Source: a virus (lineage: Duplodnaviria; Heunggongvirae; Uroviricota; Caudoviricetes). Taken from it: a stretch of DNA of 64,000 nt. This document shows, one piece after another, positions 5,128-60,200 of this stretch (positions within the stretch are counted from its first letter, which is position 1; each line of letters opens with the position of its first letter). Location of the stretch: IMG/VR virus record IMGVR_UViG_3300005253_000053; one strand, given 5' to 3'. Position numbers and translations under genes: made by a program. The notes beneath the pieces are model-generated. The model saw only the letters and a program-made list of their open reading frames with translations, did not search any database and was not told the origin of the DNA.

Positions 5128-6633
5128 TTAGGGGCCGAATCCTGCGGAGACGGCGACATTCACAACCTCGCCCGTGGCGAAGAAGTTCGTGTCGACCATG
5201 AACTTCGCGTACTCGGTCCAGAGACCGCGCTGCGTGACGCCGAACGGCTGGACGAGCGGCGGCGAGGTGTAGAACGGGATGTACGGCGCGTACACCAACC
5301 CCGCCTTCAGGAAGCCCGGTCCCCGGTAGCCGACCACGAACCGGTTGGGGTTCGTGCCGCCGCCGACATCCGGCATACGGGGGTCGACGACCACGTCCCA
5401 CTGGCCGTCGATCTTTCCGGCCAGGGTCGGGCCTGCGGTGGCCTTCGTGCCGAAGCTCGGGTCCGGCACGAAGCGCGGCGCACCGATGTCGCGCAGGATC
5501 GAGAGCACCTCGGTCCCGCAGACAACGAAGTTCGGCTGGATCTGCTGCGTCGCCTGATAGACGAGATCCGAAGCCTGGATGATGGCACCGATCAGGCCTT
5601 CCTTGTGCCACTTGAAGGCGAACCCGCCGCCCGTGTTCCGGTTGAAGACCACGTTTCCTGCTGTGGCCTCCTGAACCATGAAGTCGATCAGTTCACGGAC
5701 GATTTCCGCCGTGACCGTCTCCGACATGGACACAACCAGTTCCGCGTCGGCGTCGCCACCGTACTGGCTGCGGAAGTCCGCAACCGTCTTGTGGCTGTAC
5801 TCGATCTGGAGGTTGCGCGGCTCGGCCCGAATCAACTGCTGCTGCAATTCGAGCTTGACCTTCGGGATGAGGGGGTTTCCCTCGGAGTCGTACTTGTACG
5901 TCGTGAGGATCGGAAGTGTGACCGCTCCCGTGAAGGTCATGCCCACGACTGCGCCCGTGAGGTAGTCGATGGTTCCGCCGCCGGTCGTGTCACCGACGAG
6001 CGCGCCGTTGCCATCGTCGCGAACGACGAGAGGCGTGGCGGCCGAGTCGAACATCTCGAACGAACCCGGGCGGATCGGGAAGTACGTGCCGACAAGGCTC
6101 GCGGCCTTGGCGAACGGTCCCGGGGTCGTCCCCGTGAAGCGCGCTTCACGGAAGATGACTTCGTCCGAGTAGTGGAAATTGGTGCCCTGGAACCCGGTCG
6201 TCGCGTCGAAGATCCGGCTTCCCCCGACCAGTTCACCCTTGTCGTTCTCGCGGATGATGCTGTAGTAGAAGACGTTCGAGTGCGGACCGGCCATCGGCTG
6301 AACCGAGGCCAGGACGCTGATGATGTCCTCCTGGAACGCTGCGCGAACCATCGGGAACATCCACTGCTCGAAGCTGCCGAGGTTCACCGCCTTCATCGCC
6401 TCATCCATCTGGCTGAGGTAATTGCCGGTGTTCTCCAGAAGCTGAGCGACGACCGCCTGCTTGTAGGGGTCCTCCATCTCGGCGATGAAGTTCGTGGGAC
6501 GCTTGTGGAAGCGCTTGTCCTTGTAGCGGGACCACTTGCGGATCAAGCCCTGGCGAGCGTCGATGAAATTCGTCACCAGGGTCGACTCTTGCGCCTCGTT
6601 GAGAGGCTGAGCGACTGCTGCGGCCGTACTCAT
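5128..6633 (-). CDS. major capsid protein, T4 gp23-like
   Basis: Blocks collinear with T4 gp23 as I recall it: MVRAAF..SVLASVQPM (T4 MVRRAI..DICGVQPM), GGDADAELVVSMSETVTAEI (GMDADAELSGILATEIMLEI), PNFVVCGTEVLSIL (GNFIIASRNVVNVL), FVVGYRGPG..GLVYAPYI (FTVGYKGPN..GIYYAPYV). Start set at MSTAAAV with GGGAGA 9 nt upstream. N-terminal IAE/LLE sites suggest propeptide cleavage. Confidence 0.85.
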   Translation of the reverse strand: MSTAAAVAQPLNEAQESTLVTNFIDARQGLIRKWSRYKDKRFHKRPTNFIAEMEDPYKQAVVAQLLENTGNYLSQMDEAMKAVNLGSFEQWMFPMVRAAFQEDIISVLASVQPMAGPHSNVFYYSIIRENDKGELVGGSRIFDATTGFQGTNFHYSDEVIFREARFTGTTPGPFAKAASLVGTYFPIRPGSFEMFDSAATPLVVRDDGNGALVGDTTGGGTIDYLTGAVVGMTFTGAVTLPILTTYKYDSEGNPLIPKVKLELQQQLIRAEPRNLQIEYSHKTVADFRSQYGGDADAELVVSMSETVTAEIVRELIDFMVQEATAGNVVFNRNTGGGFAFKWHKEGLIGAIIQASDLVYQATQQIQPNFVVCGTEVLSILRDIGAPRFVPDPSFGTKATAGPTLAGKIDGQWDVVVDPRMPDVGGGTNPNRFVVGYRGPGFLKAGLVYAPYIPFYTSPPLVQPFGVTQRGLWTEYAKFMVDTNFFATGEVVNVAVSAGFGP

Positions 6634-6785
6634 GGTAGTAATCTCCCGTTTCAGTGTAGCACCGCCCACAATGGGGATGCTTTGAAGCGGGAAGGCTGGT
6701 GGCTGGAGTGGCCTCGCGGAGGCTCGTACCACTGGATAGGCATCAGTGGGTCCGAGTACCGCCTTCCTTGACGATTCTTATTTTG

Positions 6786-6810: not shown

Positions 6811-9417
6811 CTACGACCCGCGCTTCTTGCGGGCGATCACGTTCTCCATCAGGAGCGATCCGTCGCCTTTCAGCGGCGCGGTCTCCGGATTCCCCATCTG
6901 GGGCGGCTTCTTCTTGGCTCTCCGAACGCCCACGGGCAGTACAGTCTCTTCAAGCTGCCGCTTCCGTGGCGCTGGCGCGGGCTTCCCGCGCTGCGCTGCC
7001 GGGGCTGCCTCGGTCAGATTCTCTTTGCTTCCGCCGGAGGCGCGATTCAAGTTCTCCATCATGGTCTGGAAACCACTCTTGGACTTCTTGCCTTCGACCG
7101 GGTTCATCGGGACCATGACATAGGCCTGGGCGTCCGGCGCGTCGGCGACCTCGGGCGGGACCTCGAACTTCTGCCCTTCACCCTCGCCCGCGCCCTCGCC
7201 CTCGATGTCATCCACGTCCATGCCGAGATCCAGTTCGTCGTCGCCTTCCTCGTCACCTTCCTCGTCACCTTCCTCGTCGCCGAAGAAATCGCCGCCCATG
7301 TCGTCGCCGCCCATGTCGTCGTCGTCGCCATTGACGTAGTCGTCCACGCCGTCTCTCTCGGCGATCTCGGCCATGCCGATGGACTGTTCGTAGTCGACGC
7401 CGTGGGCCTTCGCGAAGGAGGCCGCAATGTCGTTCTCGGCGATGCCCATGGACTGGAGAGCCTTGTACAGGGTGTCGCCGTCGAAGATCTGGCCGTACGC
7501 ATCGCCATTGACGAGCACGCGGTAGAAGCCGTCCTCTTCGAGGCCGATCTCCACGTTGACCTCTTCCTCGTTGTGCATGCGCACGCGGGTGCCCAGCATC
7601 GCCTCGGCCAGCCCGACCATGCCCGAAACATCCTGGGAGGTCTTGAGCGCCGAACGGCACTGCGCGGTGTCCAGCGCCGGGTTGGCTTCGATGATGCGCT
7701 CCATCGAGGTCTTGAACTGTTCCTCGCGGTAGCGCTTCCCGGTGTCGACAGCCAGCGTCTTCGCAGCTTTCAACTGCTTCTTGATGTGCTGGTTTTCGCG
7801 ACGGAGGCCACGATTCTCGTTCACAAGGCCGACGTTCAACCCGGCCAGAGACTCCATGTCCATATCACCCATCTCCTCGTAGTTGTCGTCGTCGTAGCCC
7901 ATCTCGTCGTGAGCGTAATCCATCTCATCCTGAGGCTGACCCATGCCGCCCGGGTGCACTCCACCCATTTCGTCGCGCGGCATCGGACGACCTCGACGAC
8001 GACGGCGACGCATGGGGTGTCCGCCCATGCCCATTTCCTGGACGATTTCCTCGTCGCCATCAGACTGGTCGCTGGCAACGATGCCCTGAAGATCCTTGAC
8101 CTTCTTGCCCCTGCGGCTGGTCTGCTTGTTCTTGGTGTCGTAGGCGACGTGCATGCCCTTCGCGCCGGGGATCTTCTTCGAGCCTTCCTCGTCGAGGTTG
8201 GCTGCACCGCCCTGAGACTCGGTGCCGATGATCTTGCCGTGCTTCTGACCGGTCTCGCCTGCGGGGACCTTGACGCCGGGCTTCACGCCGGGACCCGGAG
8301 GCGTGCCGTCGTTGGACGTGCCTTCGGGATCTTCGATGTGGCCCTGACCTTCTGCGCCGCCGGGGCCGAGGTTCTGGCCCTTCTTGCCGACAGTCGGGAG
8401 CACGTCGAGTTCGTCGATGGACGGAGACGTGGCAACGCTGAGACCCTTCGCGCCCGACAACGGGGTCGGGTCGGCCTCGTTCATGGCCGCCGTGATGACC
8501 TCAAGGATCTCGTCGCGATGGTGCTGGATCTTGCCCTTCATCGAGGCGGCAAGGTCCAGAGCAGCGCTGTCGGTGAGCGCGGAACGGGCCGAGAACAGAC
8601 CTTCATTCAGCGCGTCGAGTTCCTTCAGGTACTCGGTGAGGTTGCCCTTCGGCTGAATGCTGAGACTGCCCAGCTTCGGCTCCAACCGGCTCAGCCTCGT
8701 GCGGATTTCCGTAAGGTCCATCACCGTGTCTCCTCTGTTCGCAGGAAGTGAGTAGTGAGTCCCGGCAGCCTGCTGCTCTTTCAGGAGCTTGCGCCGAGCT
8801 TCCTGCGCCTCGTTGATGGCTTCCCGAACCGCGCGCGGGAATGCCCCGGGCGTGCTCGGACGAGCCACAATATCCCAAACGATGGTTTCGCGGTCAACAT
8901 CGTCCTGGACAATGTCGGCATCCGCCGGGAAGGCCGGATACTTGGCCCCCTCATTCCGGATGACCGAGCCCTGGGCGCGGCTGGATGCGCCCGTCTCGAC
9001 GTTGGCTTCCCACAGAGCCTCAACGATCTTGCCGTCGGGTGTGGGCAGGGCCTCGAACTCGCCGATGATGGCTGTGTCGGGATCTTCGCCCTGGGCGATG
9101 AGTTCTTCACGCATCCCCGGGAACTTGTCGATGTAGCCAACATCGGTGAGCACGACGGCAAATTTGCGCAGGTCCGGTAGACCATCAGAGGGGTGCTCGA
9201 TGTGCCCACATACGGCACGGCGGCCAACGCGGCCCATGAACTCCCCCGACGTCTCAAACAGGTTCTCGAAGAAGCTCTTCGGGTAAACCCGCTTGTTACC
9301 GTTTAGGGTGTCGTACCGCTGGATGATTCCACGGGCTCTGGTAGCCCCGTTTTCCTGCAAGTTCGACTCGACCAGCTTGAATCGCGTCGCTACGGAGTCC
9401 TCTAGCAATGTTCTCAT
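6811..9417 (-). CDS. prohead protease-like N-terminal domain fused to long acidic scaffold-like region
   Basis: 868 aa. The N-terminal ~150 aa (GIIQRYDTLNGNKRVYPKSFFEN...AVCGHIEHP) is compatible with a prohead protease. The rest is coiled-coil and low complexity (RRRRRRGRP, DEEGDEEGDEEGDDE) with many L/I-x-E sites. It sits immediately upstream of the capsid gene, as T4 gp21/gp22 do. Confidence 0.4.
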   Translation of the reverse strand: MRTLLEDSVATRFKLVESNLQENGATRARGIIQRYDTLNGNKRVYPKSFFENLFETSGEFMGRVGRRAVCGHIEHPSDGLPDLRKFAVVLTDVGYIDKFPGMREELIAQGEDPDTAIIGEFEALPTPDGKIVEALWEANVETGASSRAQGSVIRNEGAKYPAFPADADIVQDDVDRETIVWDIVARPSTPGAFPRAVREAINEAQEARRKLLKEQQAAGTHYSLPANRGDTVMDLTEIRTRLSRLEPKLGSLSIQPKGNLTEYLKELDALNEGLFSARSALTDSAALDLAASMKGKIQHHRDEILEVITAAMNEADPTPLSGAKGLSVATSPSIDELDVLPTVGKKGQNLGPGGAEGQGHIEDPEGTSNDGTPPGPGVKPGVKVPAGETGQKHGKIIGTESQGGAANLDEEGSKKIPGAKGMHVAYDTKNKQTSRRGKKVKDLQGIVASDQSDGDEEIVQEMGMGGHPMRRRRRRGRPMPRDEMGGVHPGGMGQPQDEMDYAHDEMGYDDDNYEEMGDMDMESLAGLNVGLVNENRGLRRENQHIKKQLKAAKTLAVDTGKRYREEQFKTSMERIIEANPALDTAQCRSALKTSQDVSGMVGLAEAMLGTRVRMHNEEEVNVEIGLEEDGFYRVLVNGDAYGQIFDGDTLYKALQSMGIAENDIAASFAKAHGVDYEQSIGMAEIAERDGVDDYVNGDDDDMGGDDMGGDFFGDEEGDEEGDEEGDDELDLGMDVDDIEGEGAGEGEGQKFEVPPEVADAPDAQAYVMVPMNPVEGKKSKSGFQTMMENLNRASGGSKENLTEAAPAAQRGKPAPAPRKRQLEETVLPVGVRRAKKKPPQMGNPETAPLKGDGSLLMENVIARKKRGS

Positions 9418-9759: not shown

Positions 9760-10218
9760 TCAGATGTGGCCCTGAGTGACATCCACCAACATCGTGCCTG
9801 TTCCGCTCGTGATCCGAAGGCGCAGGGCGTCCGGCGAGCGCGCGTTCGTCAAAGTCGGCCAGTCGACGATCCGGCGCGACCGGCCCAGGGGTACGACTAC
9901 GTCGCTCGCAATCGAATCCCAGGTCGTGGTCGCGTCGACCTCGGTCTGCTCGACGTTTCCGCCCGTGATGCCGATCTGACGGTCTCGGTTGTCAAAGTCG
10001 AACGCGGCCAGGATCTCGACCGTCAGGCTATCCTCCAGATCCTGGTTCTCGTACTCGAAAATCATGGCCGTGTTCAGGAAAGGCCCACGAAAATAGCGGC
10101 CGTCGGGCTCAGTCGTCGGCGGGAACACCTGGGTGCGGATCGTCTCTTCGCTGTGCAGGAAGAAACGCTGGTTGAAAATGTTGGCAGCCTGAGTCTCGAC
10201 ACCAGGAGCGTTACTCAC
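9760..10218 (-). CDS. hypothetical virion-module protein
   Basis: 152 aa, protein-like composition, overlaps the glycosyltransferase stop by 8 nt. Confidence 0.45.
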   Translation of the reverse strand: MSNAPGVETQAANIFNQRFFLHSEETIRTQVFPPTTEPDGRYFRGPFLNTAMIFEYENQDLEDSLTVEILAAFDFDNRDRQIGITGGNVEQTEVDATTTWDSIASDVVVPLGRSRRIVDWPTLTNARSPDALRLRITSGTGTMLVDVTQGHI

Positions 10219-16418: not shown

Positions 16419-16467
16419 GCAAGAACCTCCGCTGAGGCTGGTGAGAGCGCCGCAACGCAATGACGCG

Positions 16468-24877: not shown

Positions 24878-24912
24878 ACATACCTGTATTATCGGATTGC
24901 GGGAGCAATTCC
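24878..24912 (-). promoter_or_regulatory. class A promoter motif
   Basis: plus: catacctgtattatcggattgcgggagcaattcc. The motif ATG is out of frame with the CDS here. Confidence 0.55.
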
Positions 24913-28960: not shown

Positions 28961-29003
28961 GTAAGAGTCCCTACCCGTGTTATCGGATTGGGAAGGCTAT
29001 TTC
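28961..29003 (-). promoter_or_regulatory. class A promoter motif (variant lacking motif ATG)
   Basis: plus: gtaagagtccctacccgtgttatcggattgggaaggctatttcagc. Confidence 0.5.
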
Positions 29004-29011
29004 AGCAATAA

Positions 29012-29449
29012 TTATTGGAGATTCCACGAAACGGCCCACCCGTCGCCCGGTTTGCCTTCTCCGTCGACTTCGTGGTAGCTGGTGGCCGGAATTTCGTCGA
29101 TACTCTCAAACGCGGTCGCGGAGGGCGTCCCAAAGGCCGAGACCAAGGCCCGGTACGACTTTTGAGACGTCACATCCGCTTCGACCGTCTTCACGCCCCA
29201 CTCTTTCAACGACTGGGCTGCTTTTTGGGCCAGGAGCGTACCGTAGCCCCGGCCGCGATGTGCGGGCTTCACAAAAAGGTTGCCCAGGTGGGATTTCGTG
29301 TCGTCGAGAGTCTCAGTCGTCACGTGGCCGACTTCTTCGCCCGCAAGGTAGGCGCGAAGAGTCAGACCGCCCCAGGGAGCCTTCATCACCTGGAAAGTGA
29401 GGCCCCGGGCTTCGTTGAGGACGGTTCGGATGGCGCGTCGGGAATCCAT
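29012..29449 (-). CDS. GNAT acetyltransferase with N-terminal MDxRRAIRxxLxE tag
   Basis: MDSRRAIRTVLNEA... N-terminus, then GNAT motif A HRGRGYGTLL. Confidence 0.65.
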   Translation of the reverse strand: MDSRRAIRTVLNEARGLTFQVMKAPWGGLTLRAYLAGEEVGHVTTETLDDTKSHLGNLFVKPAHRGRGYGTLLAQKAAQSLKEWGVKTVEADVTSQKSYRALVSAFGTPSATAFESIDEIPATSYHEVDGEGKPGDGWAVSWNLQ

Positions 29450-29495
29450 GGCGGAGAGTATACCCGGATCACCAGATCAGGTAAAATAGGTCCCA
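29450..29495 (-). promoter_or_regulatory. class B promoter (GGGTATACT-N7-ATG)
   Basis: mRNA-sense TTTTACCTGATCTGGTGATCCGGGTATACTCTCCGCCATG. Confidence 0.5.
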
Positions 29496-34326: not shown

Positions 34327-34878
34327 TCAGTCCGTATCCTCACGCAGCTTGCGTATGGCGTGGACGGGGAGCTTGCCCTTGTGAACCCAGACCCGCCATT
34401 CGTCTCGATCCAGTCGGAAAGATTTCAGAGCCTGCACGAGGCCGATGTCCACAACCATCTCGTCGACAGGATCGACCGCGTACCGACTCGCAGCTTTTTG
34501 CGCGAGAGTGATAGTGATCGCATGAACATACAAGGTCCCCCACAACCTACCACGCCGGGGGCCGCGCGAACGGTTCAAGCGTACCCAGCCGCTCGCAATC
34601 ACACGGTCGATCAGGAACGGGTTGTACGATCCTGGAAGATGCTGCTCCTCTCGTGGCCGACCCCTCTTCTGCGGATCAGCCTTTGGATGAGCATCGAATT
34701 CTTCGACCTGGGCGGCGGTCAGCCCAAACCGCTCTGGCTGTTCGCGGATGATCTTGGTGTGTTCCGGCCTCGGTTCTCCAGGTGGGCACACCTCGACGCC
34801 GCTGCCCGGATGGTACCAACCGAGCGTCCCGGAAATCTCGGGCGGCGCGTCACAAAGGGTTTGGCGGATAGCGTTCAC
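34327..34878 (-). CDS. hypothetical protein
   Basis: 183 aa. Confidence 0.45.
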   Translation of the reverse strand: MNAIRQTLCDAPPEISGTLGWYHPGSGVEVCPPGEPRPEHTKIIREQPERFGLTAAQVEEFDAHPKADPQKRGRPREEQHLPGSYNPFLIDRVIASGWVRLNRSRGPRRGRLWGTLYVHAITITLAQKAASRYAVDPVDEMVVDIGLVQALKSFRLDRDEWRVWVHKGKLPVHAIRKLREDTD

Positions 34879-36325: not shown

Positions 36326-36640
36326 CTAACACTCCTCCCGGTCGCCAGGAATGTCCAGAATTTCCAGGTCCGGGTCAGGCGTGGCGCACGCTTCGTCAAA
36401 ATCCTTTGCCGCCAGACTCAGCAGCCAGTCCAGAAATGACTCCGCGATGGGGTTTCCCCGAACCGCGTCGAGAATGTCGTACATGACCTCAGTGTGTTCC
36501 GGACCCGTGCGGAACGAGACGACCTTCATGTCGATGCCGAGCTTCCGGCACAGCGCAGCGCCCATGGCAACCATACGTTTGGCTTCGTCACTAGCCACTG
36601 TGTCCTGCCTCCCGTACGTACTTGGCGACGTCGTGCTCAA
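36326..36640 (-). CDS. hypothetical small protein
   Basis: 104 aa. Confidence 0.45.
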   Translation of the reverse strand: MSTTSPSTYGRQDTVASDEAKRMVAMGAALCRKLGIDMKVVSFRTGPEHTEVMYDILDAVRGNPIAESFLDWLLSLAAKDFDEACATPDPDLEILDIPGDREEC

Positions 36641-37613
36641 CCATCATCGCCACCAGATCCTCGAACGAAACGTCCGGTCGCCACTGCAAGACCATACGGG
36701 CCTTGGTCGGATTTGCGTGCAGGACGTGAACTTCCGCCGGGCGGAAGAACTCGGGGTCGATGACGATGTACTTCTCGTAGTCCAGATTGACCACTCCGAA
36801 GGCGGCCTTCACGAAATCTCGAACTGAGTAGGTCTTGCCGGAGCCGACCACGTAGTCGTCAGGCTTCTCCTGCTGGAGCATCAGCCACATGGCCTTCACG
36901 TAGTCTCCGGCAAAGCCCCAGTCGCGCTTGGCGTCGAGATTCCCCAAGTGGAGTTTCTCCGCCTTACCTAGACTAATGGCCGCCGCGCCCCTCGTGATCT
37001 TTCGAGTCACGAACTCCACGCCCCGACGAGGGCTCTCATGGTTGAACAGGATGCCCGAACACGCGAACAGTTTGTAGGCTTGTCGGTACATGCGGGTGAA
37101 CTGGAAGCCTGCCACCTTGCTGATCGCGTAGGGTGATTGGGGATCGAGCGGTGTCTCCTCACTTTGTGGGGCGTCGGTCGAAGCGTTCCCGAACATCTCA
37201 CTCGTGCCTGCAAAGTAGAAACGACAGTCCGGTGCGAGATGCCGCAAAGCCTCCAACAGATGCAATGTGCCGACGGCGTTGATCTGGAACGTATCGAACG
37301 GAGAGTCGAACGACTCCTTGACGAAGCTCTGGGCTCCGAGATGGTAGCACTCGTCCGGCATCACGTTCCGCACCACGTCGAATACGCTGGCGTAGACCTG
37401 CAAATCTCCGCTGTGCAACACCAGATCGTTCGCAATGTGGTGGATGCGACCTGCCCGATCTGCCGGGTCTTCGACAGCCGCTCTCCTGACGAGCCCGTGA
37501 ACTTCGTAGCCCTTCTCCAGCAGAAGCTCAGACAGATACGATCCATCCTGCCCCGTGATTCCAGTAATGAATGCTCTCATGGTCGGCCCCAGCCCCTTCG
37601 GCCATCCGGTCAC
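36591..37613 (-). CDS. gmd: GDP-mannose 4,6-dehydratase
   Basis: MRAFITGITGQDGSYLSELLLEKGYEVHGLVRR..., PYAISK, NHESPRRG, DYVVGSG..SVRDFV, FRPAEV are collinear with E. coli Gmd. The start may be at MRAF (37577). Confidence 0.85.
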   Translation of the reverse strand: MTGWPKGLGPTMRAFITGITGQDGSYLSELLLEKGYEVHGLVRRAAVEDPADRAGRIHHIANDLVLHSGDLQVYASVFDVVRNVMPDECYHLGAQSFVKESFDSPFDTFQINAVGTLHLLEALRHLAPDCRFYFAGTSEMFGNASTDAPQSEETPLDPQSPYAISKVAGFQFTRMYRQAYKLFACSGILFNHESPRRGVEFVTRKITRGAAAISLGKAEKLHLGNLDAKRDWGFAGDYVKAMWLMLQQEKPDDYVVGSGKTYSVRDFVKAAFGVVNLDYEKYIVIDPEFFRPAEVHVLHANPTKARMVLQWRPDVSFEDLVAMMVEHDVAKYVREAGHSG

Positions 37614-38271: not shown

Positions 38272-38787
38272 TTACACGGCGGCTTTTCTACCTCGCTTTC
38301 GCTTGGCCTTGATACGGTCGATGGCGTCGAAAACGATCCGAAGCTCATCGAGGTGCTTCCAGCGTTCGCGCCACTGCTCGGCCTCCTGCAACGCAATTGC
38401 CAACAGGTTCGCGCGCCGATCCGCGTCGCTGAGGATCTCCACGGTGGGAAAGTACGCCCCGCCCTGGGACGTGGGATTCTCCGTGTAGAACGCGCGCACG
38501 ACTGTGGGCTCCTGCTTCCCCATGGGCTTGCGGTAGATCGTGACTTCGATGTTCCGGATGAGGAGCCGCGCCTGCTCCAAGCGATGATCGTTGGCTGCGC
38601 TATGATTATCCCAAGTGAAGAAACTGTGCATCGGACTCTTCTTCGCGTGTGCTCGTCGCAGAACCTCCTCGGGGAGAATCCCGCCCTCGTCTTTCCGGAT
38701 GGTTTCGAGTTCCTGACCGATGTCGTTGGCCAGCGCTTTCTGTACCTTCGTGTACCGAGATCCCTTTTTGAAATTGTACTTCGCCAT
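38272..38787 (-). CDS. hypothetical protein
   Basis: Start set at MAKYNFKKG (GGAGG 7 nt upstream), 171 aa. Confidence 0.45.
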   Translation of the reverse strand: MAKYNFKKGSRYTKVQKALANDIGQELETIRKDEGGILPEEVLRRAHAKKSPMHSFFTWDNHSAANDHRLEQARLLIRNIEVTIYRKPMGKQEPTVVRAFYTENPTSQGGAYFPTVEILSDADRRANLLAIALQEAEQWRERWKHLDELRIVFDAIDRIKAKRKRGRKAAV

Positions 38788-38852
38788 GATGACCTCCAGG
38801 AAAAAGTTGGAGGGAGGACCCCTCCATGGAGCCCTCCCTCGCAACCAAGAAA

Positions 38853-39079
38853 CTACCCAGCCGCAGCGCTGTGCGACTTACGTGTCTTGCCGCCGCTGGC
38901 GACCTGGAAGCCGCCCCACGTGCCGCCCTTCTCCGTACGCCATTCGCCGAGGCCGACGGAGATACCCGCTTCCGCCAGCAAGTTCACGATGGTCGTCTCG
39001 TCGATACGATCCGCGTTGAACAGGATCGACACATTGGTCTTCCATCCCGCAGGGAACTCCCCTCGGTAGCGAAGATCCA
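38853..39079 (-). CDS. hypothetical small protein
   Basis: MDLRYRGEFPAGW..., start uncertain. Confidence 0.3.
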
Positions 39080-39180
39080 TTGGACGTGCCGGGCCTACCG
39101 ATCCATGCCTAACTGCCACTTCTGTCAAACCAACCCTCAACGCTGGAGACACAGCGCTGCCTACCCAACCCAAATTCAGA

Positions 39181-39672
39181 TCATTCCCCTTCCGGCGGAA
39201 TAATGGCGGCTATCAACATCTCTCCAAGTTTTGGCCAGTACTCCTTAAATTTGGAGCCGCCTTTGATATACGTTATCCTGTAGCCACTATCCTCAGCCGA
39301 GTTCGTAGGCCCATTTTTAATGGCGACCCACCCATGCGCCTCCCAGCACTTCAACACCTCGACACGCTGCAAAGTTCGCAACTCAAACTCCGCCACGGCC
39401 AACTGATTGTGGCTGAAGTAGCAGTCGTTATCTTCGCGCCACAGGCAAGTTCGTTTGATGACGTCCAGGATGACGTTCTCTCTCAGCATTCCAACCAAGA
39501 GAGGCATTGCCATAAGACTGGTCAGGATATCGATCTGCTGCTGCTTGTCTGTTGTGAATTTGTGCTCCGCCAAGATATCCAACACAGCGCGAGTCAGACT
39601 CAACGCAGCGAGCCGACGCGTAGAGCCGCTGTTCAGAGGGACCTTGGTAACCGTGATACTGTCTCTACCCAT
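39181..39672 (-). CDS. hypothetical protein, paralog of 46126..46608
   Basis: EVLKCWEAHGWVAIKNG...EYWPKLGEMLIAAIIP matches EVLKYWESKGWVELHAK...EYWPKLLEMLRAVTLP. Starts at the class A motif ATG. Confidence 0.5.
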   Translation of the reverse strand: MGRDSITVTKVPLNSGSTRRLAALSLTRAVLDILAEHKFTTDKQQQIDILTSLMAMPLLVGMLRENVILDVIKRTCLWREDNDCYFSHNQLAVAEFELRTLQRVEVLKCWEAHGWVAIKNGPTNSAEDSGYRITYIKGGSKFKEYWPKLGEMLIAAIIPPEGE

Positions 39673-39705
39673 AATAATATCATCGGATTGGCCGAGCATC
39701 CTGCT
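39670..39705 (-). promoter_or_regulatory. class A promoter motif
   Basis: plus: cataataatatcatcggattggccgagcatcc. Confidence 0.5.
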
Positions 39706-39749
39706 CAGACCAAATCCGAAAAATATTTGGAGACCGCTGAATTTTAGGA

Positions 39750-40142
39750 TCAGCGCAACCTGCGCCCGGTGCCGCCACGGTCCAGTTCTCCCCAGGGGAA
39801 GTACCAGATCTCGAAGTCGTCCGGGAGGTGCTCCGCCAGCCGCTTCGCGACGTGATTTGCCTTCCGGGCGGCCATACGCTGCTCGAAAGCCCACGGCGTG
39901 AGGCTGGCCATGCGCTTCGTAACGTCGATGCGCCCGGCAAACTGCGGGGGTCCTTCCATGCCAACGTCGAGGTGGTAGGTGTCCGGATCGACACCTTCCT
40001 GGCTGGCGAAGCTGAACTGACCATCTGACCACTTCCAGGCGTCGAAGTCCTTGGAGCCGCTGCGGTAGTGGCCGATGTCGGTGTAGTGCTGAGGAGCGGC
40101 CTCGCAGAGCAGCTTACGGATGACTTGGCGGGTGGAGTCCAT
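39750..40142 (-). CDS. MDxTRxAIRxxLxE-tagged protein (candidate packaged internal protein)
   Basis: MDSTRQVIRKLLCEA... The C-terminal module (EGVDP..H....F.GR.D....AARKA..V.KRL...P....WYF) is shared with 40142..41107. Confidence 0.6.
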   Translation of the reverse strand: MDSTRQVIRKLLCEAAPQHYTDIGHYRSGSKDFDAWKWSDGQFSFASQEGVDPDTYHLDVGMEGPPQFAGRIDVTKRMASLTPWAFEQRMAARKANHVAKRLAEHLPDDFEIWYFPWGELDRGGTGRRLR

Positions 40143-41107
40143 CAGTACATTCTCTGCCCAGGCCTGCCGCGTTGCTGCCCGCTGAAGTACCAGACCGCCT
40201 CGACCTCGGGGAACCGGTCGACGAGCCGCTTCACGACGACCTTCGCTTTCCGTGCAGCGATGGGATTGTCGAGCAGGTCCCAGGCCGTGATGCTGGCCTC
40301 GCGCCGCTGAGGGTCGTAGCGTCCGCCGAAGTCAGGAGCGCCCTGAGTGTCGTAAATCAGGTTGTGGAACTTGTTCGGATCGACGCCTTCATCGCTGGCA
40401 ACGCGCAGCCGACCTTCGTCCCAGATCCACGCGTCGGTACCTTCGCCGTGGCCGACGGTGAGGTAGTTGGCGGGGGCTTCGTCCAGGACCGCCTCGGCCC
40501 GGACCAGGGATTTGTCCTGGATCTCGTAGCCCTCAACGGCACCGACGTTCGCATAGTCGAAGCCTTGCAGGACCGCAACTTTCTGTTCGGCGAACCGACC
40601 GTGGACGATGTAGTAGGCAGCCTGCCCAACGACCTCGGTGAACAGCGCAGGCCGGGCTTCCACGGTAGCCAGCTTGGCGTGCGTGTTGTACGCGGCGAGT
40701 TCCCCACGGAGTGTGAACGGCTGACCGCGGGCGATGTGCGTGAAGTAATCGTGGACGGTCCGGAATAGCAGATTGTCCTCGACGCTGAAGACCGGGTGCT
40801 CAGAATCTCCGCTGTAGATTTTTAGAACGCCTGTCTCGCGGAAGTCCCGCTGCATTTCTTCAGACGACTCGTACGGGTCCTCGTCCGTGTACTCGACACG
40901 GGACCGGCCCAGGAACCGGCGAAACAGAATTTTGTTGCTGCTGTTGAGCGCCTCCCAGTGGCGGGCCGCGTCCGGGTCGTAACTGGGAGCCTCCTCGTAG
41001 GCGTCAGCGACGAGCCGCGCGTACTCGTTAAAATCTTTAAGTTCGAGCTTCTCGCGCACGTCCGCTTCGAGAAGCAGCTTCCGGATGGCTGTGCGGGTAG
41101 CGTCCAT
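40142..41107 (-). CDS. MDxTRxAIRxxLxE-tagged protein, 321 aa
   Basis: MDATRTAIRKLLLEA... Its C-terminal ~70 aa are paralogous to 39750..40142. ATGA-coupled. Confidence 0.6.
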   Translation of the reverse strand: MDATRTAIRKLLLEADVREKLELKDFNEYARLVADAYEEAPSYDPDAARHWEALNSSNKILFRRFLGRSRVEYTDEDPYESSEEMQRDFRETGVLKIYSGDSEHPVFSVEDNLLFRTVHDYFTHIARGQPFTLRGELAAYNTHAKLATVEARPALFTEVVGQAAYYIVHGRFAEQKVAVLQGFDYANVGAVEGYEIQDKSLVRAEAVLDEAPANYLTVGHGEGTDAWIWDEGRLRVASDEGVDPNKFHNLIYDTQGAPDFGGRYDPQRREASITAWDLLDNPIAARKAKVVVKRLVDRFPEVEAVWYFSGQQRGRPGQRMY

Positions 41108-41481
41108 CAGATCTTCACGTCCTTCCGCAACGAAATGTGGACACCGGGGTTGATCTCGTCCAGCTTCAACCTGAGCTTGATGACCTCGACCTGATGCGGC
41201 CTGAGATTACGATCCCGCGCGGCGTAGAACGCGGCGTCCTTCGGGCTGTCAGCAACATACGTACCTGCCCGCAGAACGTCGTAATCACTGCGCTTCGGAC
41301 GACCGTGATACAGTTCGACGGTCCCATCGAGCAGGATCGGGATGCCGTGGCGCTCCAGGTACTCGCCTACGGTTTCCTTGCCGAGAACCGGGTGGTCGAG
41401 CCAGACGCGGTTCAGACCCCCCTCGTCGTCGGCATCAGCCTCGTAGAGGATCTTCCGGATGGCTTGGCGGGTGGCGTCCAT
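41107..41481 (-). CDS. MDxTRxAIRxxLxE-tagged protein, 124 aa
   Basis: MDATRQAIRKILYEA... Confidence 0.6.
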   Translation of the reverse strand: MDATRQAIRKILYEADADDEGGLNRVWLDHPVLGKETVGEYLERHGIPILLDGTVELYHGRPKRSDYDVLRAGTYVADSPKDAAFYAARDRNLRPHQVEVIKLRLKLDEINPGVHISLRKDVKI

Positions 41482-41957
41482 CAGCGGCCCTCGATCTTGT
41501 CCGCGACGTTCACCATCTGCGAGAGCATGTTCCGGTAGCCGCCGCCGTGTTCGATGTTGGGGACGTCCGCGCTGTGAACCGCATCGATCTCGGTCTCACC
41601 GCGCTGAAGCGCCTCAATCGCCCGGTGGTGACCGTCCAGTATGAACCAGGCAGCGCGCTTTTCGAGCTTGCTGACCAGGAGCGGACTCTTAGCAGCATGG
41701 TAGGATAACTCCCCTTTCTCGATTTCACTGAAGGTTTTATCAATCTTCGGTTCCCAGGCGTACAGGCTGCGCAGCCGGACGCGCCAGGGTTTTCCCTTGA
41801 TCGCGGCCTCAGCCAACAGACGCTTCACAAGATCGGGTGGGTAGCCCCGGTCAGAGCAGCCAGGAGGGGGTGCGGAGATCGAGCCGTCGCCGACCTGTTG
41901 GAAGACGCCGCGACCCTCGTTGAGGATGGAGCGAATGGCTTTGCGGGTGGGGTCCAT
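41481..41957 (-). CDS. MDxTRxAIRxxLxE-tagged ParB-like nuclease domain protein
   Basis: MDPTRKAIRSILNEG... plus AAWFILDGHHRAIEAL (ParB/Srx DGHHR motif). Confidence 0.65.
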   Translation of the reverse strand: MDPTRKAIRSILNEGRGVFQQVGDGSISAPPPGCSDRGYPPDLVKRLLAEAAIKGKPWRVRLRSLYAWEPKIDKTFSEIEKGELSYHAAKSPLLVSKLEKRAAWFILDGHHRAIEALQRGETEIDAVHSADVPNIEHGGGYRNMLSQMVNVADKIEGR

Positions 41958-42026
41958 CAGTCGTTTAGCATCCGCCGGGATTGTCCTCGTGGAATGAACT
42001 CGTCAGGTCGGCGTAGTGCATCGCAG

Positions 42027-42464
42027 TCAGTCTTCCTTGCCACCGCATACGAGGGCGTTGTAGGTCAGCGCCACAGTCAGCAGGTTGTTGTGCTCGTAGG
42101 ACAGCTTGGGGATCTCCAGCGACCGGAGGGTCATCTGCGGCTCGCCGTCGATGTAGAGCATCCATCGGCCGGTGCGCACCGGCTCCCAGTCCGGGGAGTC
42201 CGGGCTGGTCTCGATGAGGTCGTTGCCGTCCCGGTCGAGGAACTTCAGCACCATCTCGGGGACACGGCTCAGCAGGATCTGCCGGAACGAGACGGGCACC
42301 TCGAAGGCGACCCCCTCGTCGCGCATGTACTGGAGGACTTTCTCAGTGGCCTCTTCACCGATCCGGTCAGCGAGGTTCTGCGCCCACGGGTGGTCCATGG
42401 TCATCAGGTCGTAGGGCGCAGCGTCGAGGATCTGGAAGACGTTGCTGGGCTTCGGGAAGGGCAT
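42027..42464 (-). CDS. hypothetical protein
   Basis: 145 aa. Confidence 0.5.
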   Translation of the reverse strand: MPFPKPSNVFQILDAAPYDLMTMDHPWAQNLADRIGEEATEKVLQYMRDEGVAFEVPVSFRQILLSRVPEMVLKFLDRDGNDLIETSPDSPDWEPVRTGRWMLYIDGEPQMTLRSLEIPKLSYEHNNLLTVALTYNALVCGGKED

Positions 42465-42530
42465 GGCAGGTCTCCTGGTAGGTGGCAGATAGTATACCCG
42501 ACCACCGGACAGGAGGCCAACAGTCAGATA

Positions 42531-43109
42531 TCAGGTCCCGATCTGGTCGGCGTCCACGTACTTGACCTGCTGTCCGCAGCCGATGCAACGGTCGAGCATC
42601 TCGATCCGTCCGTCGTCATCCCGGCGGAGCAGCAGTGTGCCCACCACGCAGAACGGACACTCCCGCGAGAACGAGTCTGCCCGCACCGGCTCCAGGTCAG
42701 CGTAGTAGATCCGGAGGATAGGCTTCTCGATGTTACTTGGCTTCGTCGGCTCAAGTTTCGTCGAAATCAGCACCCGGCTGTAATAGTCGCCCCGGAACCC
42801 CTCAGAGTCGAAACGGGTCCGCTTGGGATCGATAGCATCCGTCGGGTCCATGTAACCCACCCGAGCGCCTGCGTCCTCCAGATGACCGCCGATGATACGA
42901 GCCAAGGTGGTCTTCCCGCAGCCGAGGATACCGCTCAAGGAGATCTCGACCATGCCGTGGCCTTCGACGTTGCAATCTTTCACGAGCGCATCCACCTTCT
43001 CGGCCATCTCCGGAGAGAAGACCTCGTTCCCACGAACAGTGCTCTCCAGGATCTCGTCCTGCGCGCCGTACACGCGGTCTACCAGCTTCTTCCTGTGATC
43101 GTCGTCCAT
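42531..43109 (-). CDS. P-loop nucleotide kinase-like protein with C-terminal zinc ribbon
   Basis: Walker A SGILGCGKTTLARII. CPFC...CIGCG. Possibly two genes, with the kinase starting at MVEISL (about 42953). Confidence 0.5.
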   Translation of the reverse strand: MDDDHRKKLVDRVYGAQDEILESTVRGNEVFSPEMAEKVDALVKDCNVEGHGMVEISLSGILGCGKTTLARIIGGHLEDAGARVGYMDPTDAIDPKRTRFDSEGFRGDYYSRVLISTKLEPTKPSNIEKPILRIYYADLEPVRADSFSRECPFCVVGTLLLRRDDDGRIEMLDRCIGCGQQVKYVDADQIGT

Positions 43110-46608: not shown

Positions 46609-46645
46609 AACAGTATTATCGGATCGGGGCGGCTATTTAGCCAAG
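46606..46645 (-). promoter_or_regulatory. class A promoter motif (canonical: TTGGCT-N18-GATAAT-N6-ATG)
   Basis: plus: cataacagtattatcggatcggggcggctatttagccaa. Confidence 0.55.
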
Positions 46646-49635: not shown

Positions 49636-49671
49636 AATAGTACTATCGGATTCGGACAGCTATTTGGTCAG
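49633..49671 (-). promoter_or_regulatory. class A promoter motif
   Basis: plus: cataatagtactatcggattcggacagctatttggtca. Confidence 0.55.
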
Positions 49672-51414: not shown

Positions 51415-51451
51415 AACAGTGTTATCGGATCGGGACGGCTATTTGGTCAGA
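51412..51451 (-). promoter_or_regulatory. class A promoter motif
   Basis: plus: cataacagtgttatcggatcgggacggctatttggtca. Confidence 0.55.
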
Positions 51452-51823: not shown

Positions 51824-51885
51824 GGGCAGCAGTATACCTGGATATTCGAGGATTGCGAAATTGAAACGGGCAAAAATTTTGTGTG
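51824..51885 (-). promoter_or_regulatory. class B promoter (GGTATACT-N7-ATG) with upstream AAAATTTT element
   Basis: mRNA-sense CACACAAAATTTTTGCCCGTTTCAATTTCGCAATCCTCGAATATCCAGGTATACTGCTGCCCATG. Confidence 0.5.
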
Positions 51886-51887
51886 GC

Positions 51888-52376
51888 TCAGGTCTGTAGG
51901 TCCAGGCGCAGGAAGATGGCTTCGTAATTCTCCCGGGACTCGCGATGCGTCTCCACAAAGCCAAAACGCTCGTACAAGTGGTGGGCCGCCCGCTCGTCGT
52001 CGAGATCAGACGTAAACAGCTTGAGGCACTCGTAGCCCTCATCCTTGGCCCGCTGAATCGTGAAGCGCAGCAAATCGGTCCCCAGGCCCTGCTTCCGGTG
52101 GTCGGGATGAACGCAGAACCAACCGACCCAGATCGCCTCGGGCGTAGGAATCTCGTTGTAGAAGCCAGTAACCCCAGTGACCACACCGTTTTCAATAGCA
52201 ACCCAGTAGCGAATGTCGGAGCACTCGTGGGCTTCCATGAAATCGGTGTGGGACCCAGGACGGGTGGCCTCCTCAAAGCAGCGCTTGATGGATTCCTGGT
52301 CATCGTCCTTGAACACCTGCTGCGTCAACAGCATGGCCTGATCGGCGAACTCAGCGGTGAGCGGCAAGGGCTTCAC
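51888..52376 (-). CDS. GNAT acetyltransferase
   Basis: VHPDHRKQGLGTDLL (motif A). Start placed at the class A motif GTG. Confidence 0.6.
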   Translation of the reverse strand: MKPLPLTAEFADQAMLLTQQVFKDDDQESIKRCFEEATRPGSHTDFMEAHECSDIRYWVAIENGVVTGVTGFYNEIPTPEAIWVGWFCVHPDHRKQGLGTDLLRFTIQRAKDEGYECLKLFTSDLDDERAAHHLYERFGFVETHRESRENYEAIFLRLDLQT

Positions 52377-52410
52377 AACAGTATTATTGGATCGGAAGGC
52401 CTGTTTACCC
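52374..52410 (-). promoter_or_regulatory. class A promoter motif (GTG variant)
   Basis: plus: cacaacagtattattggatcggaaggcctgtttaccc. Confidence 0.45.
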
Positions 52411-52917
52411 AAGGAAATCCGACTCGGGAAACCTCTTCGCGCGTCGCATGAGAGCCTCAGGCGTCATCCGGGGGTGCATCAGGTCGGTGACATCGACCTT
52501 GATGGCCTCCCGCTGATCCCAGACGTCGAGGTAGACCGTGTCGCCCAGCGTCAGGCCGGGCAGCAGGACGCGCAGGCGATTCAGAACCTCGGAGTCGAGC
52601 GTGGGCACCGTAATCCCGTCGTCGTAGCCGCGAATCCAGCCGTGTTCTAGCGCTTCGGCCTCAACCCGTTGGCGGTCGTGGGGATCGTCGGAAACCGTGC
52701 TCACCTCGTCCAGCAACTCCTCGATGCCCGGGTCGCCAGGGTACATCTCAGGAAAGCGCCTCAAGGCCTCAGCGGCGTGCGTCGTCCAGCCACTCCCAGT
52801 CCAGCCACTCCCAATGTTGATGTACTCGCCGTCGGGCAGGAGCCACCAGCGGCCCAGCCATGTGGACTCGCGGGCCTCGGTGAGGATGGAACGGATGGCG
52901 TGACGGGTGGAATCCAT
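52405..52917 (-). CDS. MDxTRxAIRxxLxE-tagged protein, paralog of 52917..53441
   Basis: MDSTRHAIRSILTEA... WWLLPDGEYINIGSGW and HGWIRGYDDG blocks shared with the neighbour. Confidence 0.6.
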   Translation of the reverse strand: MDSTRHAIRSILTEARESTWLGRWWLLPDGEYINIGSGWTGSGWTTHAAEALRRFPEMYPGDPGIEELLDEVSTVSDDPHDRQRVEAEALEHGWIRGYDDGITVPTLDSEVLNRLRVLLPGLTLGDTVYLDVWDQREAIKVDVTDLMHPRMTPEALMRRAKRFPESDFLG

Positions 52918-53441
52918 TAGGCCTGCCGCGTGACTTGGGCAGGATGCTTTGCCAGCAGAACCGTCTCCACATCGGCGTACATGTACCCACTGCCATATTC
53001 GAGCAGGATTTTGCCCTTCGTGGCACCCCGGTCGAGCAGGAACGTCTGTATACGCCTCAGCGACTCAGCATCGAACTCCAGCATGTCGAAGCCGCCGGTA
53101 TCGGTTACACGAATCCAGCCATCCCGGATCGCCACCTGCTCAGGGTTGTTCATGTAGCGCGCGACGAAGTCAGGCTTCTTGGCGTACTCCCGAGCAATAT
53201 CGGCGTGGACGTCGTACCAGGGGCCGTCGAAGGTCTCGTCCATGATGTCCTGCTCAGAGGCCGACAGGAACCCCCAGTCGATCTCAGCAGCGACGGCCAG
53301 AGCAGCCGCCTCGTGATTCCAGCCACTGTCTTCAACAGTCACAACCTCGCCATCAGGCAGAATCCAGTAATCAGCACGGAGCACGTCGGCAGCATCGGAC
53401 TCAGTGAGCAGCTTTCGGATGGCGTGACGGGTCTGATCCAT
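52917..53441 (-). CDS. MDxTRxAIRxxLxE-tagged protein, paralog of 52405..52917
   Basis: MDQTRHAIRKLLTES... YWILPDGEVVTVEDSGW, DGWIRVTDTG. Confidence 0.6.
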   Translation of the reverse strand: MDQTRHAIRKLLTESDAADVLRADYWILPDGEVVTVEDSGWNHEAAALAVAAEIDWGFLSASEQDIMDETFDGPWYDVHADIAREYAKKPDFVARYMNNPEQVAIRDGWIRVTDTGGFDMLEFDAESLRRIQTFLLDRGATKGKILLEYGSGYMYADVETVLLAKHPAQVTRQA

Positions 53442-59342: not shown

Positions 59343-59756
59343 CTACCGGCCAGTAACTACGTAGCGGCTCTTGAGTTCGTCCCCGTCAACACTGGGATGG
59401 CTGTAGTAGACGCCTCCCTCGGAGGTGTACAGATCCACGTCGAGGGTACTGGTGAACTGGTCTACCGTAGGATCTAGGATGTGACTGCCGACGATCACCC
59501 ATGTGTGGTCCCACTCCTCAAGCTCCTCGAATCCGGGCCGGTCTCCTGTGACTGTGATGAACTGGCCGCCTTGGATCTTTGCCTGGATTCCTTTGGCGCG
59601 GAGAAGTTTGACGAGTCCCTCGGCGGTCTCGCTGCAATCCCCGAACTGGGCAACGTCGCACACGAACTGCTTACGGGCCTGCTTGGCAAGATCAATGGTG
59701 GCGTCCGTGATCGACTCAGTGAGCATCCTGCGTATGACTGTTCTGGTGGAGTCCAT
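59343..59756 (-). CDS. MDxTRxAIRxxLxE-tagged protein, 137 aa
   Basis: MDSTRTVIRRMLTES... ATGA-coupled to the upstream family member. Confidence 0.55.
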   Translation of the reverse strand: MDSTRTVIRRMLTESITDATIDLAKQARKQFVCDVAQFGDCSETAEGLVKLLRAKGIQAKIQGGQFITVTGDRPGFEELEEWDHTWVIVGSHILDPTVDQFTSTLDVDLYTSEGGVYYSHPSVDGDELKSRYVVTGR

Positions 59757-60148
59757 CACATGGCTCTCAACTTCTCAATGAACTCTACGACTTCCAGGTC
59801 TGCGAATTCCCTGTCCTGAAGCCACTCGTACGTGTCGCAGGGGACCTCGTAAGCCATAATGGACCGCGCACCCGACATCATTCTGGCAATCAGCCTGTGG
59901 TGTCCGTCCAGGAGTTTGCCGCACGCGATCCAGATCGGCGGAATGTCTTTGGCCTGCCGGAGCGCCGCGATCTTCTCCGGGTCCTGGTGTAGCTCGTAGG
60001 TCAGTATCTGCCTTGGGTCCTCTTCAACCAATTCGGCGGTCAGGTCGATCCCGGCTGCGCGGGCTTCGTCAACGACCTCCCGTTCCCAGTCCTTGAGAGG
60101 GTCGGCCTCGGTGAGCATCCTGCGTATGGCTGTTCTGGTTGGGTCCAC
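59756..60148 (-). CDS. MDxTRxAIRxxLxE-tagged ParB-like nuclease domain protein
   Basis: (GTG)DPTRTAIRRMLTEA... plus ACGKLLDGHHRLIARM (DGHHR). Leaderless GTG 7 nt after TATACT. Confidence 0.6.
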   Translation of the reverse strand: MDPTRTAIRRMLTEADPLKDWEREVVDEARAAGIDLTAELVEEDPRQILTYELHQDPEKIAALRQAKDIPPIWIACGKLLDGHHRLIARMMSGARSIMAYEVPCDTYEWLQDREFADLEVVEFIEKLRAM

Positions 60149-60200
60149 GGCAGGCAGTATACCCGGTGGGCCTCAGCATGGCGAGTAGAGCCTCTTAGGT
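60149..60200 (-). promoter_or_regulatory. class B promoter (GGGTATACT-N7-GTG)
   Basis: mRNA-sense GCTTGACTCACCTAAGAGG...CCACCGGGTATACTGCCTGCCGTG. Confidence 0.45.

Follow-up and report, generated by a model that had tools for sequence, protein, structure and literature searches.

A shared 14-residue N-terminal tag, probably a cleavable capsid-targeting propeptide of T4 type, on a four-gene cassette and other genes of a tailed phage

The stretch of 64,000 nucleotides deposited as IMG/VR record IMGVR_UViG_3300005253_000053 (Caudoviricetes), hereafter the window, has nearly all of its genes on the minus strand, including a cassette of four consecutive genes between positions 39,750 and 41,957, numbered here 1 to 4. 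The four proteins begin with the same kind of 14-residue peptide, referred to as the tag, placed in front of different bodies, and the evidence on this constant leader points away from a role in secretion and towards a cleavable, T4-type propeptide for capsid targeting. The parts of the cassette are listed below, with a slash marking the putative cleavage point.

41481..41957, minus strand: gene 1, 158 residues; tag MDPTRKAIRSILNE/G, a lineage-variable N-terminal segment and a ParB/sulfiredoxin (Srx)-like core at residues 59-128
41107..41481, minus strand: gene 2, 124 residues; tag MDATRQAIRKILYE/A and a small domain without an assigned family
40142..41107, minus strand: gene 3, 321 residues; tag MDATRTAIRKLLLE/A, an N-domain, a VLDE/A junction and a C-module
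40538-41050, minus strand: gene 3 N-domain, residues 20-190, phrog_3170
40478-40489, minus strand: VLDE/A junction between the two domains of gene 3
40148-40489, minus strand: gene 3 C-module, residues 207-320, similar to gene 4
39750..40142, minus strand: gene 4, 130 residues; tag MDSTRQVIRKLLCE/A and one copy of the C-module
41916..41957, 41440-41481, 41066-41107 and 40101-40142, minus strand: the 14-codon tags of genes 1, 2, 3 and 4, respectively

An earlier sequence-only reading of this DNA had described four head-to-tail genes, each starting on the stop of the preceding one. The open reading frames (ORFs) are indeed arranged in this way, with coding-like guanine-cytosine (GC) content by codon position (GC3 of 0.76-0.82 against GC2 of 0.37-0.47, in a window of 60% GC), and the three internal junctions are TGATG, a stop/start overlap of one base. 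However, the start of gene 1 overlaps only the TGA of a four-codon mini-ORF (ATG CTA AAC GAC TGA, 41957-41971, minus strand), as the real upstream gene (42464-42027, minus strand, untagged) ends 70 nucleotides from gene 1. The octamer CTGATGGAC is found seven times in the window, compared to 0.8 expected, and four of these sites are inside the cassette. It was considered as a part of the tag and ruled out, as the other three sites (24041, 31968 and 49377) begin genes that lack a tag, which makes the octamer a coupling junction of general use in the phage. The mini-ORF recreates this junction in front of gene 1 in the absence of a real gene ending at that point. Regarding the origin of the DNA, the window comes from an uncultured, giant T4-like phage represented by a marine-sediment contig of 224,854 bp (LCGC14 metagenome), one protein of which is identical to that of gene 3, and a blastn search of positions 39000-43000 against 50,697 phage records returned no match.

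The tags of genes 1 to 4 follow the pattern MD[PAS]TR[KQT][AV]IR[SK][IL]L.E, with MDxTRxxIRxxLxE as the general form. The leader claimed by the sequence-only reading is borne out and also extends beyond the cassette, as a position-specific scoring matrix (PSSM) run over all six frames of the window located intact tags on ten ORFs, well above chance: nine copies score 41.7-47.3 bits and the tenth, which starts at 29449 and has a one-residue deletion, 14.1, against 13.1 for the top non-tag match. One further gene (34327-34878) carries a decayed copy, and a tag-like segment within 14751-16460 scores only 13. Every one of the ten tags closes with L-x-E, followed by A (seven), S (two) or G (one). 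The conserved residues D2, R5, I8, R9, L12 and E14 are encoded by varied synonymous codons (GAC/GAT, CGC/CGT/CGA/CGG/AGA, ATC/ATT/ATA), with 122 synonymous pairwise differences between tag codons, which argues that selection maintains the peptide instead of an RNA element. In an AlphaFold2 model of gene 3 (two domains, predicted local distance difference test score, pLDDT, of 89), tag residues 2-14 are predicted as a helix, followed by a flexible linker. A degenerate DNA pattern of the tag found no match in IMG/VR, and its single match among JGI metagenome contigs (L003) was discarded as a chance hit in a non-coding frame. The tagged genes outside the cassette, and the one with the decayed tag, are the following.

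59756..60148, minus strand: tagged gene with a second DGHHR, 130 residues, GTG start
59343..59756, minus strand: tagged gene, 137 residues; TGATG overlap with the gene at 59756-60148; weak transglutaminase-like match
52917..53441, minus strand: tagged gene, 174 residues; paralogue of 52405-52917 (E 2e-4)
52405..52917, minus strand: tagged gene, 170 residues
51488..51823, minus strand: tagged gene, 111 residues
29012..29449, minus strand: tagged GNAT acetyltransferase, 145 residues; tag with a one-residue deletion; orthologue in contig L008
34327..34878, minus strand: gene with decayed tag, starting MNAIRQTLCD/A; homologue of the N-domain of protein P0116 (38% identity, E 2e-24)

A shared N-terminus could in principle be the residual homology of paralogues that arose by tandem duplication, with no addressing role, and true paralogy does connect gene 4 with the gene 3 C-module and the gene at 52917-53441 with that at 52405-52917. 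Nevertheless, most pairs of tagged proteins have no BLASTP similarity detectable beyond the tag, and one cargo belongs to an unrelated, established family, as the protein at 29012-29449 scores 45.2 bits with Pfam Acetyltransf_1 (E 1.3e-11), well over the cut-off of 20.7. Moreover, the tag is far better conserved than what follows it, and divergent relatives retain it in front of different cargo, leaving simple duplication as a barely credible explanation. In the decayed copy at 34327-34878, D-x-T-R is lost and the Glu of the cleavage site is changed to Asp; when the T4 capsid-targeting sequence (CTS) ends in Asp, processing stops but targeting does not (PMC9026906). A second GNAT acetyltransferase, untagged and distinct from the tagged one (51888-52412, minus strand, Pfam E 4.4e-18), lies within a cluster of tagged genes and has an orthologue at 7361-7849 of contig L005.

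The motif GGTATACT is found four times in the window, compared to 0.3 expected, always on the minus strand (29457-29464, 42491-42498, 51831-51838 and 60156-60163). Three of the copies stand exactly 7 nucleotides upstream of tagged start codons (60148, 51823 and 29449), while the fourth is part of a promoter-like element:

42491..42520, minus strand: TTGGCC-18-TATACT, containing the fourth GGTATACT, upstream of the untagged gene 42027-42464, the first of the unit with genes 1-4

A fifth tagged unit, starting at 53441, has TATGAT 9 nucleotides upstream, and in the related contig L008 the arrangement GGTATACT-N7-ATG precedes a tagged gene (1599-1606). This pattern suggests a dedicated promoter class for tagged units, in which the mRNAs of the first genes would be leaderless or near-leaderless and the remaining genes coupled by stop/start overlap. 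Such leaderless mRNAs, together with the lack of clear Shine-Dalgarno sequences at tagged starts, could also mean that the conserved 5' coding sequence acts as RNA, either as an initiation enhancer for leaderless or coupled starts or as a recombination hotspot, the peptide having no function. The varied codons described above speak against this possibility, as does the equal conservation of the tag on the internal coupled genes 2-4, away from the 5' end of the mRNA. In addition, a fossil tag persists as a peptide motif within the fusion protein P0022, and other lineages have different peptides with the same terminal L-x-E, so that a role as RNA is very improbable.

Besides the tagged genes, the window encodes two head proteins related to those of T4.

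5128..6732, likely start 6633, minus strand: T4 gp23-type major capsid protein (Pfam Gp23, E 6.5e-43; phrog_138; tblastn)
6811..9417, minus strand: gp21-type prohead protease, 868 residues; N-terminal protease of about 220 residues and a long acidic tail

The capsid protein is only 25-30% identical to that of any sequenced phage. The protease matches phrog_207 (E 6.8e-20) and, by tblastn, gp21 in 471 T4-like phage records (best E 3e-8). It starts with MRTLLE/D, parallel to the LIE-9 site that T4 gp21 itself possesses (PMC9026906), and contains 24 [LI]xE motifs, twice the average density of the window. Its tail of about 640 residues is scaffold-like, with poly-acidic runs (DDDDMGGDDMGGDFFGDEEGDEEGDEEGDD) and coiled-coil-like stretches. 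The protein may be a protease-scaffold fusion and is presumed to be the enzyme that processes the tags.

The same terminal motif recurs in the family of the gene 3 N-domain, which belongs to phrog_3170 (E 1.9e-22) and has 111 homologues. An N-terminal extension is present in 59 aligned homologues, and in 45 of these [LIVMF]-x-E stands exactly where the extension meets the conserved K[LM]xL start of the domain, compared to a background of 0.023 per position, and the motif also precedes the domain at internal junctions of longer proteins. The leader peptides themselves are mutually very different (MKLLLENWREYLNE, MKNIRDYSSFVSE and MILSFDEFINE, for instance), and the junction motif clearly outlasts the peptide sequence in this family.

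Capsid targeting is favoured because the tags end in a gp21-type cleavage motif and because the phage encodes gp23- and gp21-type proteins. Further support comes from the sharing of the tag by otherwise unrelated ORFs, the junction motif in the gene 3 N-domain family, the occurrence of that domain in large phage proteins of the presumably injected, polyvalent kind, the varying cargo behind the tag in relatives, and the separate tag of an unrelated phage contig. The tag is therefore best read, with good though not full confidence, as the functional equivalent in this lineage of the T4 CTS, which would load varied cargo into the prohead and then be removed. Several points weigh against this reading. 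Packaging and cleavage of the tagged proteins, as well as their physical location, are predictions from the sequence. A direct comparison of the tag with the T4 CTS (MKTYQEFIAE) gives no similarity past the terminal motif, the lengths being 14 and 10 residues; the tag would be an analogue or a highly diverged variant of the CTS and not the same peptide. The Pfam Peptidase_S77 match of the protease (E 1.5e-4, 21.8 bits) is below the cut-off of 27, and no exact copy of GGTATACT was seen upstream of the capsid gene. The mature cargo is mostly acidic, with isoelectric points of 4.3-6.2 and gene 1 alone being basic (8.7), unlike the basic internal proteins of T4. Finally, the nominal binomial P of 1e-61 for the 45 junctions in 59 homologues overstates independence, as the homologues are related.

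The acidic cargo, in proteins whose location is a prediction, would also suit a tag that docks them to another shared partner, such as a chaperone, a site on the tail or baseplate, membrane or export machinery or a regulator, with L-x-E being incidental. The gene 3 N-domain also occurs in gp205 of Rhodococcus phage E3, whose annotation as 'structural protein' suits capsid targeting; its position beside a tail-fibre gene fits docking. However, the tag is not hydrophobic and hence not a signal peptide, and L-x-E with a small residue behind it is invariant in the ten tags and recurrent at the domain junctions of a large family, which is hard to explain for a docking helix. In addition, such a motif is predicted by the presence of a gp21-type protease in the phage. 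Docking is, consequently, an unlikely explanation compared to capsid targeting.

Genes 3 and 4 had been reported to share a C-terminal module of roughly 70 residues. The similarity is real and highly significant, with 39% identity between residues 12-129 of gene 4 and residues 207-320 of gene 3 (BLASTP E 3e-24), but the module is longer, comprising about 115 residues, the whole of mature gene 4. As VLDE/A of gene 3 aligns with LCE/A, where the gene 4 tag ends, gene 3 may be cleaved into two parts at this point. The module is rare, having eight homologues among 1.84 billion representatives, either as tagged stand-alone copies or as repeats within proteins of 474-1961 residues, and a search for related loci in viral contigs with gene 4 as query found nothing. 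P0127 (474 residues) has four tandem copies, P0125 (1263 residues) has one copy downstream of a gene 3-type N-domain, and P0126 (1961 residues) combines at least four copies with an ATP-dependent DNA ligase and LigD primase-polymerase domains. This co-occurrence with ligase and primase-polymerase domains hints at a nucleic acid-related role of the module.

Regarding the N-domain of gene 3, the nearly invariant residues Y79, H104, R116, H119, D120, E136, E158, Q162 and K176 suggest that it is an enzyme. A Foldseek search of BFVD with the gene 3 model gave matches in phage proteins of 620-1480 residues annotated as MuF head-morphogenesis, ART-PolyVal, LPD and NAT (NAT_SF), with E values from 1e-10 to 3e-6. 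The protein P0077 (469 residues) is a fusion of a gene 3-type N-domain with a lyase domain for S-adenosylmethionine (PF23780, E 1.1e-6), an enzyme class employed by phage T3 against restriction.

The ParB/sulfiredoxin-type DGHHR that the sequence-only reading saw in gene 1 is present at residues 108-112 (nucleotides 41622-41636), and the assignment to the superfamily draws on matches below threshold, all of them to ParB/Srx members: DUF1015 (E 0.045), ParBc_2 (E 0.05) and the archaeal serine kinase SerK (E 0.06). The core, PLLVSKL..WFILDGHHRAIEAL, has the pattern of the ParB/Srx active site, including the conserved Arg of the (D/E)G(H/x)xR motif after a hydrophobic strand, and weak alignments to the free serine kinase structures 5x0e and 1vk1 (E 0.3-1.8) run over PLLVSKL..WFILDGHHR, whereas phmmer searches of genes 1, 2 and 3 against PDB sequences gave nothing significant. 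The UniRef name of the protein is ParB/Sulfiredoxin domain protein. D108, G109, H110, H111 and R112 are invariant in an alignment of seven sequences (A3), with G109, H111 and R112 still invariant in one of eight (A1); the AlphaFold2 model from seven sequences has a mean pLDDT of 36.9 and is unusable for fold comparison. Membership of gene 1 in the ParB/Srx superfamily is thus plausible, short of established. Its homologues P0113-P0117 are 62-69% identical, with variable N-terminal architecture. ParB-like domains of injected polyvalent proteins have been proposed to be nucleases for DNA regulated by nucleoside triphosphates (NTP-regulated DNases, PMC5512222).

Gene 2 matches no Pfam family, even at E 10, and no PHROG, NCBIfam or PDB entry. 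Its orthologue P0119 (74% identity) bears the same tag, while P0120 (64% identity) has a different N-terminal peptide, MKFKTWLESE. The possibility of a mini ADP-ribosyltransferase (ART), raised by the segment LYHGRP...YVADSP, was kept as a lead only, given that gene 2 aligns with ART-like neighbours solely through the tag, on top of the empty Pfam result. The ART-type neighbours in relatives have themselves weak Tpt1, PARP and ART-PolyVal matches (E 0.01-0.05).

Comparing the cassette with related contigs (L005-L008) and proteins (P0113-P0123), the tag is retained, whereas the content, order and fusions of the cargo genes vary. L006 has, in this order, a ParB_N-like gene, an orthologue of gene 4, a protein of 180 residues with weak Tpt1/PARP similarity and the fusion P0116. 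L008 has a tagged gene of 166 residues, a gene 2 orthologue and an untagged protein with a weak ART-PolyVal match, followed farther along by the tagged GNAT, and L005 has three consecutive tagged genes. In L007, a tagged gene with weak NlpC/P60 similarity precedes P0022. The domain swapping behind a constant leader that the sequence-only reading envisaged is recognized in the individual proteins: P0114 and P0115 consist of the tag and only the ParB-like half of gene 1; P0116 has the tag, a homologue of the window gene 34327-34878 and that same half; P0022 has the tag, an unrelated domain, the internal fossil tag (IRGVMRNILTE/R) and the gene 3/gene 4 module (75% identity); and P0123 is the module as a stand-alone tagged gene. 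The presence of the same address on every module would explain the shuffled architectures.

In an unrelated phage contig of 42% GC, L010 (JGI Ga0497141_002391), five or more neighbouring genes between 8805 and 18294, encoding 159-825 residues, share a separate tag, MKxxxENWxxFxNE, and three further genes have a second common N-terminus, xxQLKxIIKEEL; the region is also found within the 185-kb contig Ga0496899_00025. Because this unrelated phage has a tag of its own, the principle appears to be widespread and the tag sequence lineage-specific.

Around the cassette, other features of the window were observed. A 13-bp GC-rich hairpin with a T-tract (38810-38840, minus strand) downstream of gene 4 is the likely terminator of the cassette unit; it is inside the longest ORF call at 38272-38844, a gene whose true start is probably a downstream ATG (MAKYNFKKG...). 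Directly downstream of gene 4, an ORF of 172 residues (39181-39699, minus strand) has about 52% GC compared to about 62% in the flanks and no Pfam match, and may be a recently acquired gene within the transcription unit of the cassette. The sequence TCCGATAAYAC, allowing one mismatch, occurs at 11 sites in the window against 1 expected, for example at 24886-24896, 28977-28987, 46613-46623, 49640-49650 and 51419-51429 on the minus strand and 58006-58016 on the plus strand. At the genes checked (24870, 28960, 46608 and 49635) it stands just upstream of an untagged start, often with AAATAGCC about 20 nucleotides farther upstream, and it looks like a second, distinct promoter class. A family-2 glycosyltransferase (10211-11398, minus strand, Pfam E 6.8e-23) adjoins the head genes and a nucleotide-sugar epimerase is encoded at 36591-37613 (minus strand, phrog_540, E 1.9e-81), both of which may belong to a pathway of virion or DNA glycosylation.

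Considering capsid targeting as the function of the tag, the following sequence of events can be proposed. Genes 1-4 would share one transcript, started at a GGTATACT-type promoter, and their translation would be linked by stop/start coupling. The tag, as a 14-residue amphipathic helix, would then bind the assembling scaffold core, including the gp21-type protease with its very acidic tail. After assembly of the shell, the protease would cut behind L-x-E14, and probably also at VLDE/A of gene 3, freeing the mature enzymes inside the head, from which they would be ejected with the DNA, acting before any phage gene is expressed. The cargo of the cassette would then comprise a candidate ParB/Srx-like NTPase or nuclease, two domains without a recognized fold and a small domain without an assigned family. 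With one address of 42 nucleotides per module, modules could be gained, lost, duplicated and fused while their delivery is kept. The sequences themselves display the conserved tag, the T4-type head genes, the motif of cleavage type, the homology between modules and their shuffling in relatives. Scaffold binding, cleavage, packaging, ejection and the effector role that the sequence-only reading had given to the locus are all steps that we infer.

More tentatively, and with somewhat less than even confidence, this could be generalized to large T4-related phages, which would use lineage-specific, cleavable N-terminal 'zip codes' to bring twelve or more enzymes, each evolving on its own, into the head, with effectors shifting between a monovalent form of one tag and one domain and a polyprotein form, a fusion whose internal fossil tags let the prohead protease separate the parts again, and with the tagged genes forming a GGTATACT regulon whose promoter lies 7 nucleotides before the start codon. 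If so, the tag would be a sequence handle on the full repertoire of effectors that uncultured phages inject, among them new folds like the N-domain of gene 3 and the module of genes 3 and 4. Injected proteins act before phage gene expression, the examples from T4 and P1 including counter-defence factors, and are hard to spot in uncultured phages owing to their sequence diversity. A conserved cleavable address would provide a simple rule for listing them genome-wide, yielding at least ten in the 64 kb of the window, with another tag for an unrelated phage contig, and sharing one address would explain how such loci diversify. In addition, two domains without a close solved structure, the N-domain of gene 3 and the module that genes 3 and 4 share, are flagged as candidate early-acting effectors.

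Among known systems, phage P1 also has a capsid-directing N-terminal peptide, that of DarB, which suffices for entry into the capsid, even of a reporter, in a delivery directed against host restriction (PMC9024508). However, it has 30 residues and serves a single large cargo within the stepwise Dar assembly, rather than being a cleavable tag common to many genes. The ejection proteins of the giant phages phiKZ, 201phi2-1 and SPN3US are likewise cut by a gp21-related protease after the Glu of a three-residue motif, and the paralogous SPN3US head proteins gp53 and gp54 have an identical N-terminal 15-mer, MANFVKSKLARESVE (PMC5694885). Their motif is nevertheless A/S/G-x-E instead of L-x-E, most of their propeptides exceed 100 residues, these phages are not gp23-type T4 relatives by sequence, and a common tag on about ten unrelated cargo proteins is unreported there.

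For the polyvalent proteins described by Iyer, Burroughs, Anand, de Souza and Aravind in 2017, with 2-15 effector domains per polypeptide, virion packaging and injection have been proposed (PMC5512222), so that delivery with the DNA is proposed for both systems. The gene 3 N-domain is found within large phage proteins annotated as MuF, ART-PolyVal, LPD and NAT, and the tagged set and its relatives include ParB-like, GNAT, ART-like and NlpC/P60-like cargo, the latter two as weak matches. Here, however, the proteins are mostly separate, small, individually addressed genes, with a single domain in genes 1, 2 and 4 and two in gene 3, and no fusion to MuF or portal. The fusions that do exist (gene 3, P0022 and P0116) differ in keeping the junctional L-x-E and may be re-cut.

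The closest parallel is the T4 system of the CTS, the internal IPI, IPII and IPIII proteins, Alt and gp21, where a short N-terminal peptide likewise stands on otherwise unrelated proteins of one phage. The 10-residue CTS is sufficient to package proteins, even foreign ones, into the prohead core (PMC8442874, PMC9026906), and gp21 removes it by cutting after L/I-X-E, the bond cut in gp22 being Glu-Ala (PMC9026906, PMC8442874). Both systems have tags that end in L/I-x-E before a small residue, genes for a gp23-type capsid protein and a gp21-type protease, and varying cargo behind a constant tag; the internal proteins of T-even phages are described as a varied counter-defence set in which only the CTS is conserved (PMC3012670). 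The tag differs, being MDxTRxxIRxxLxE here and thus longer, and it is present on at least ten genes in 64 kb compared to about four in T4. Moreover, the cargo is mostly acidic and enzyme-like or multi-domain, compared to the small basic T4 proteins, and coupled gene arrays, a protease with an acidic, scaffold-like tail, junctional motifs in fusions and an apparent dedicated promoter are particular to the present phage. Every testable feature of the T4 system was found except sequence homology of the tag, in a system read here from its sequence. The principle is established for T4, while the tag and its cargo are new, extending the known biology without overturning it.

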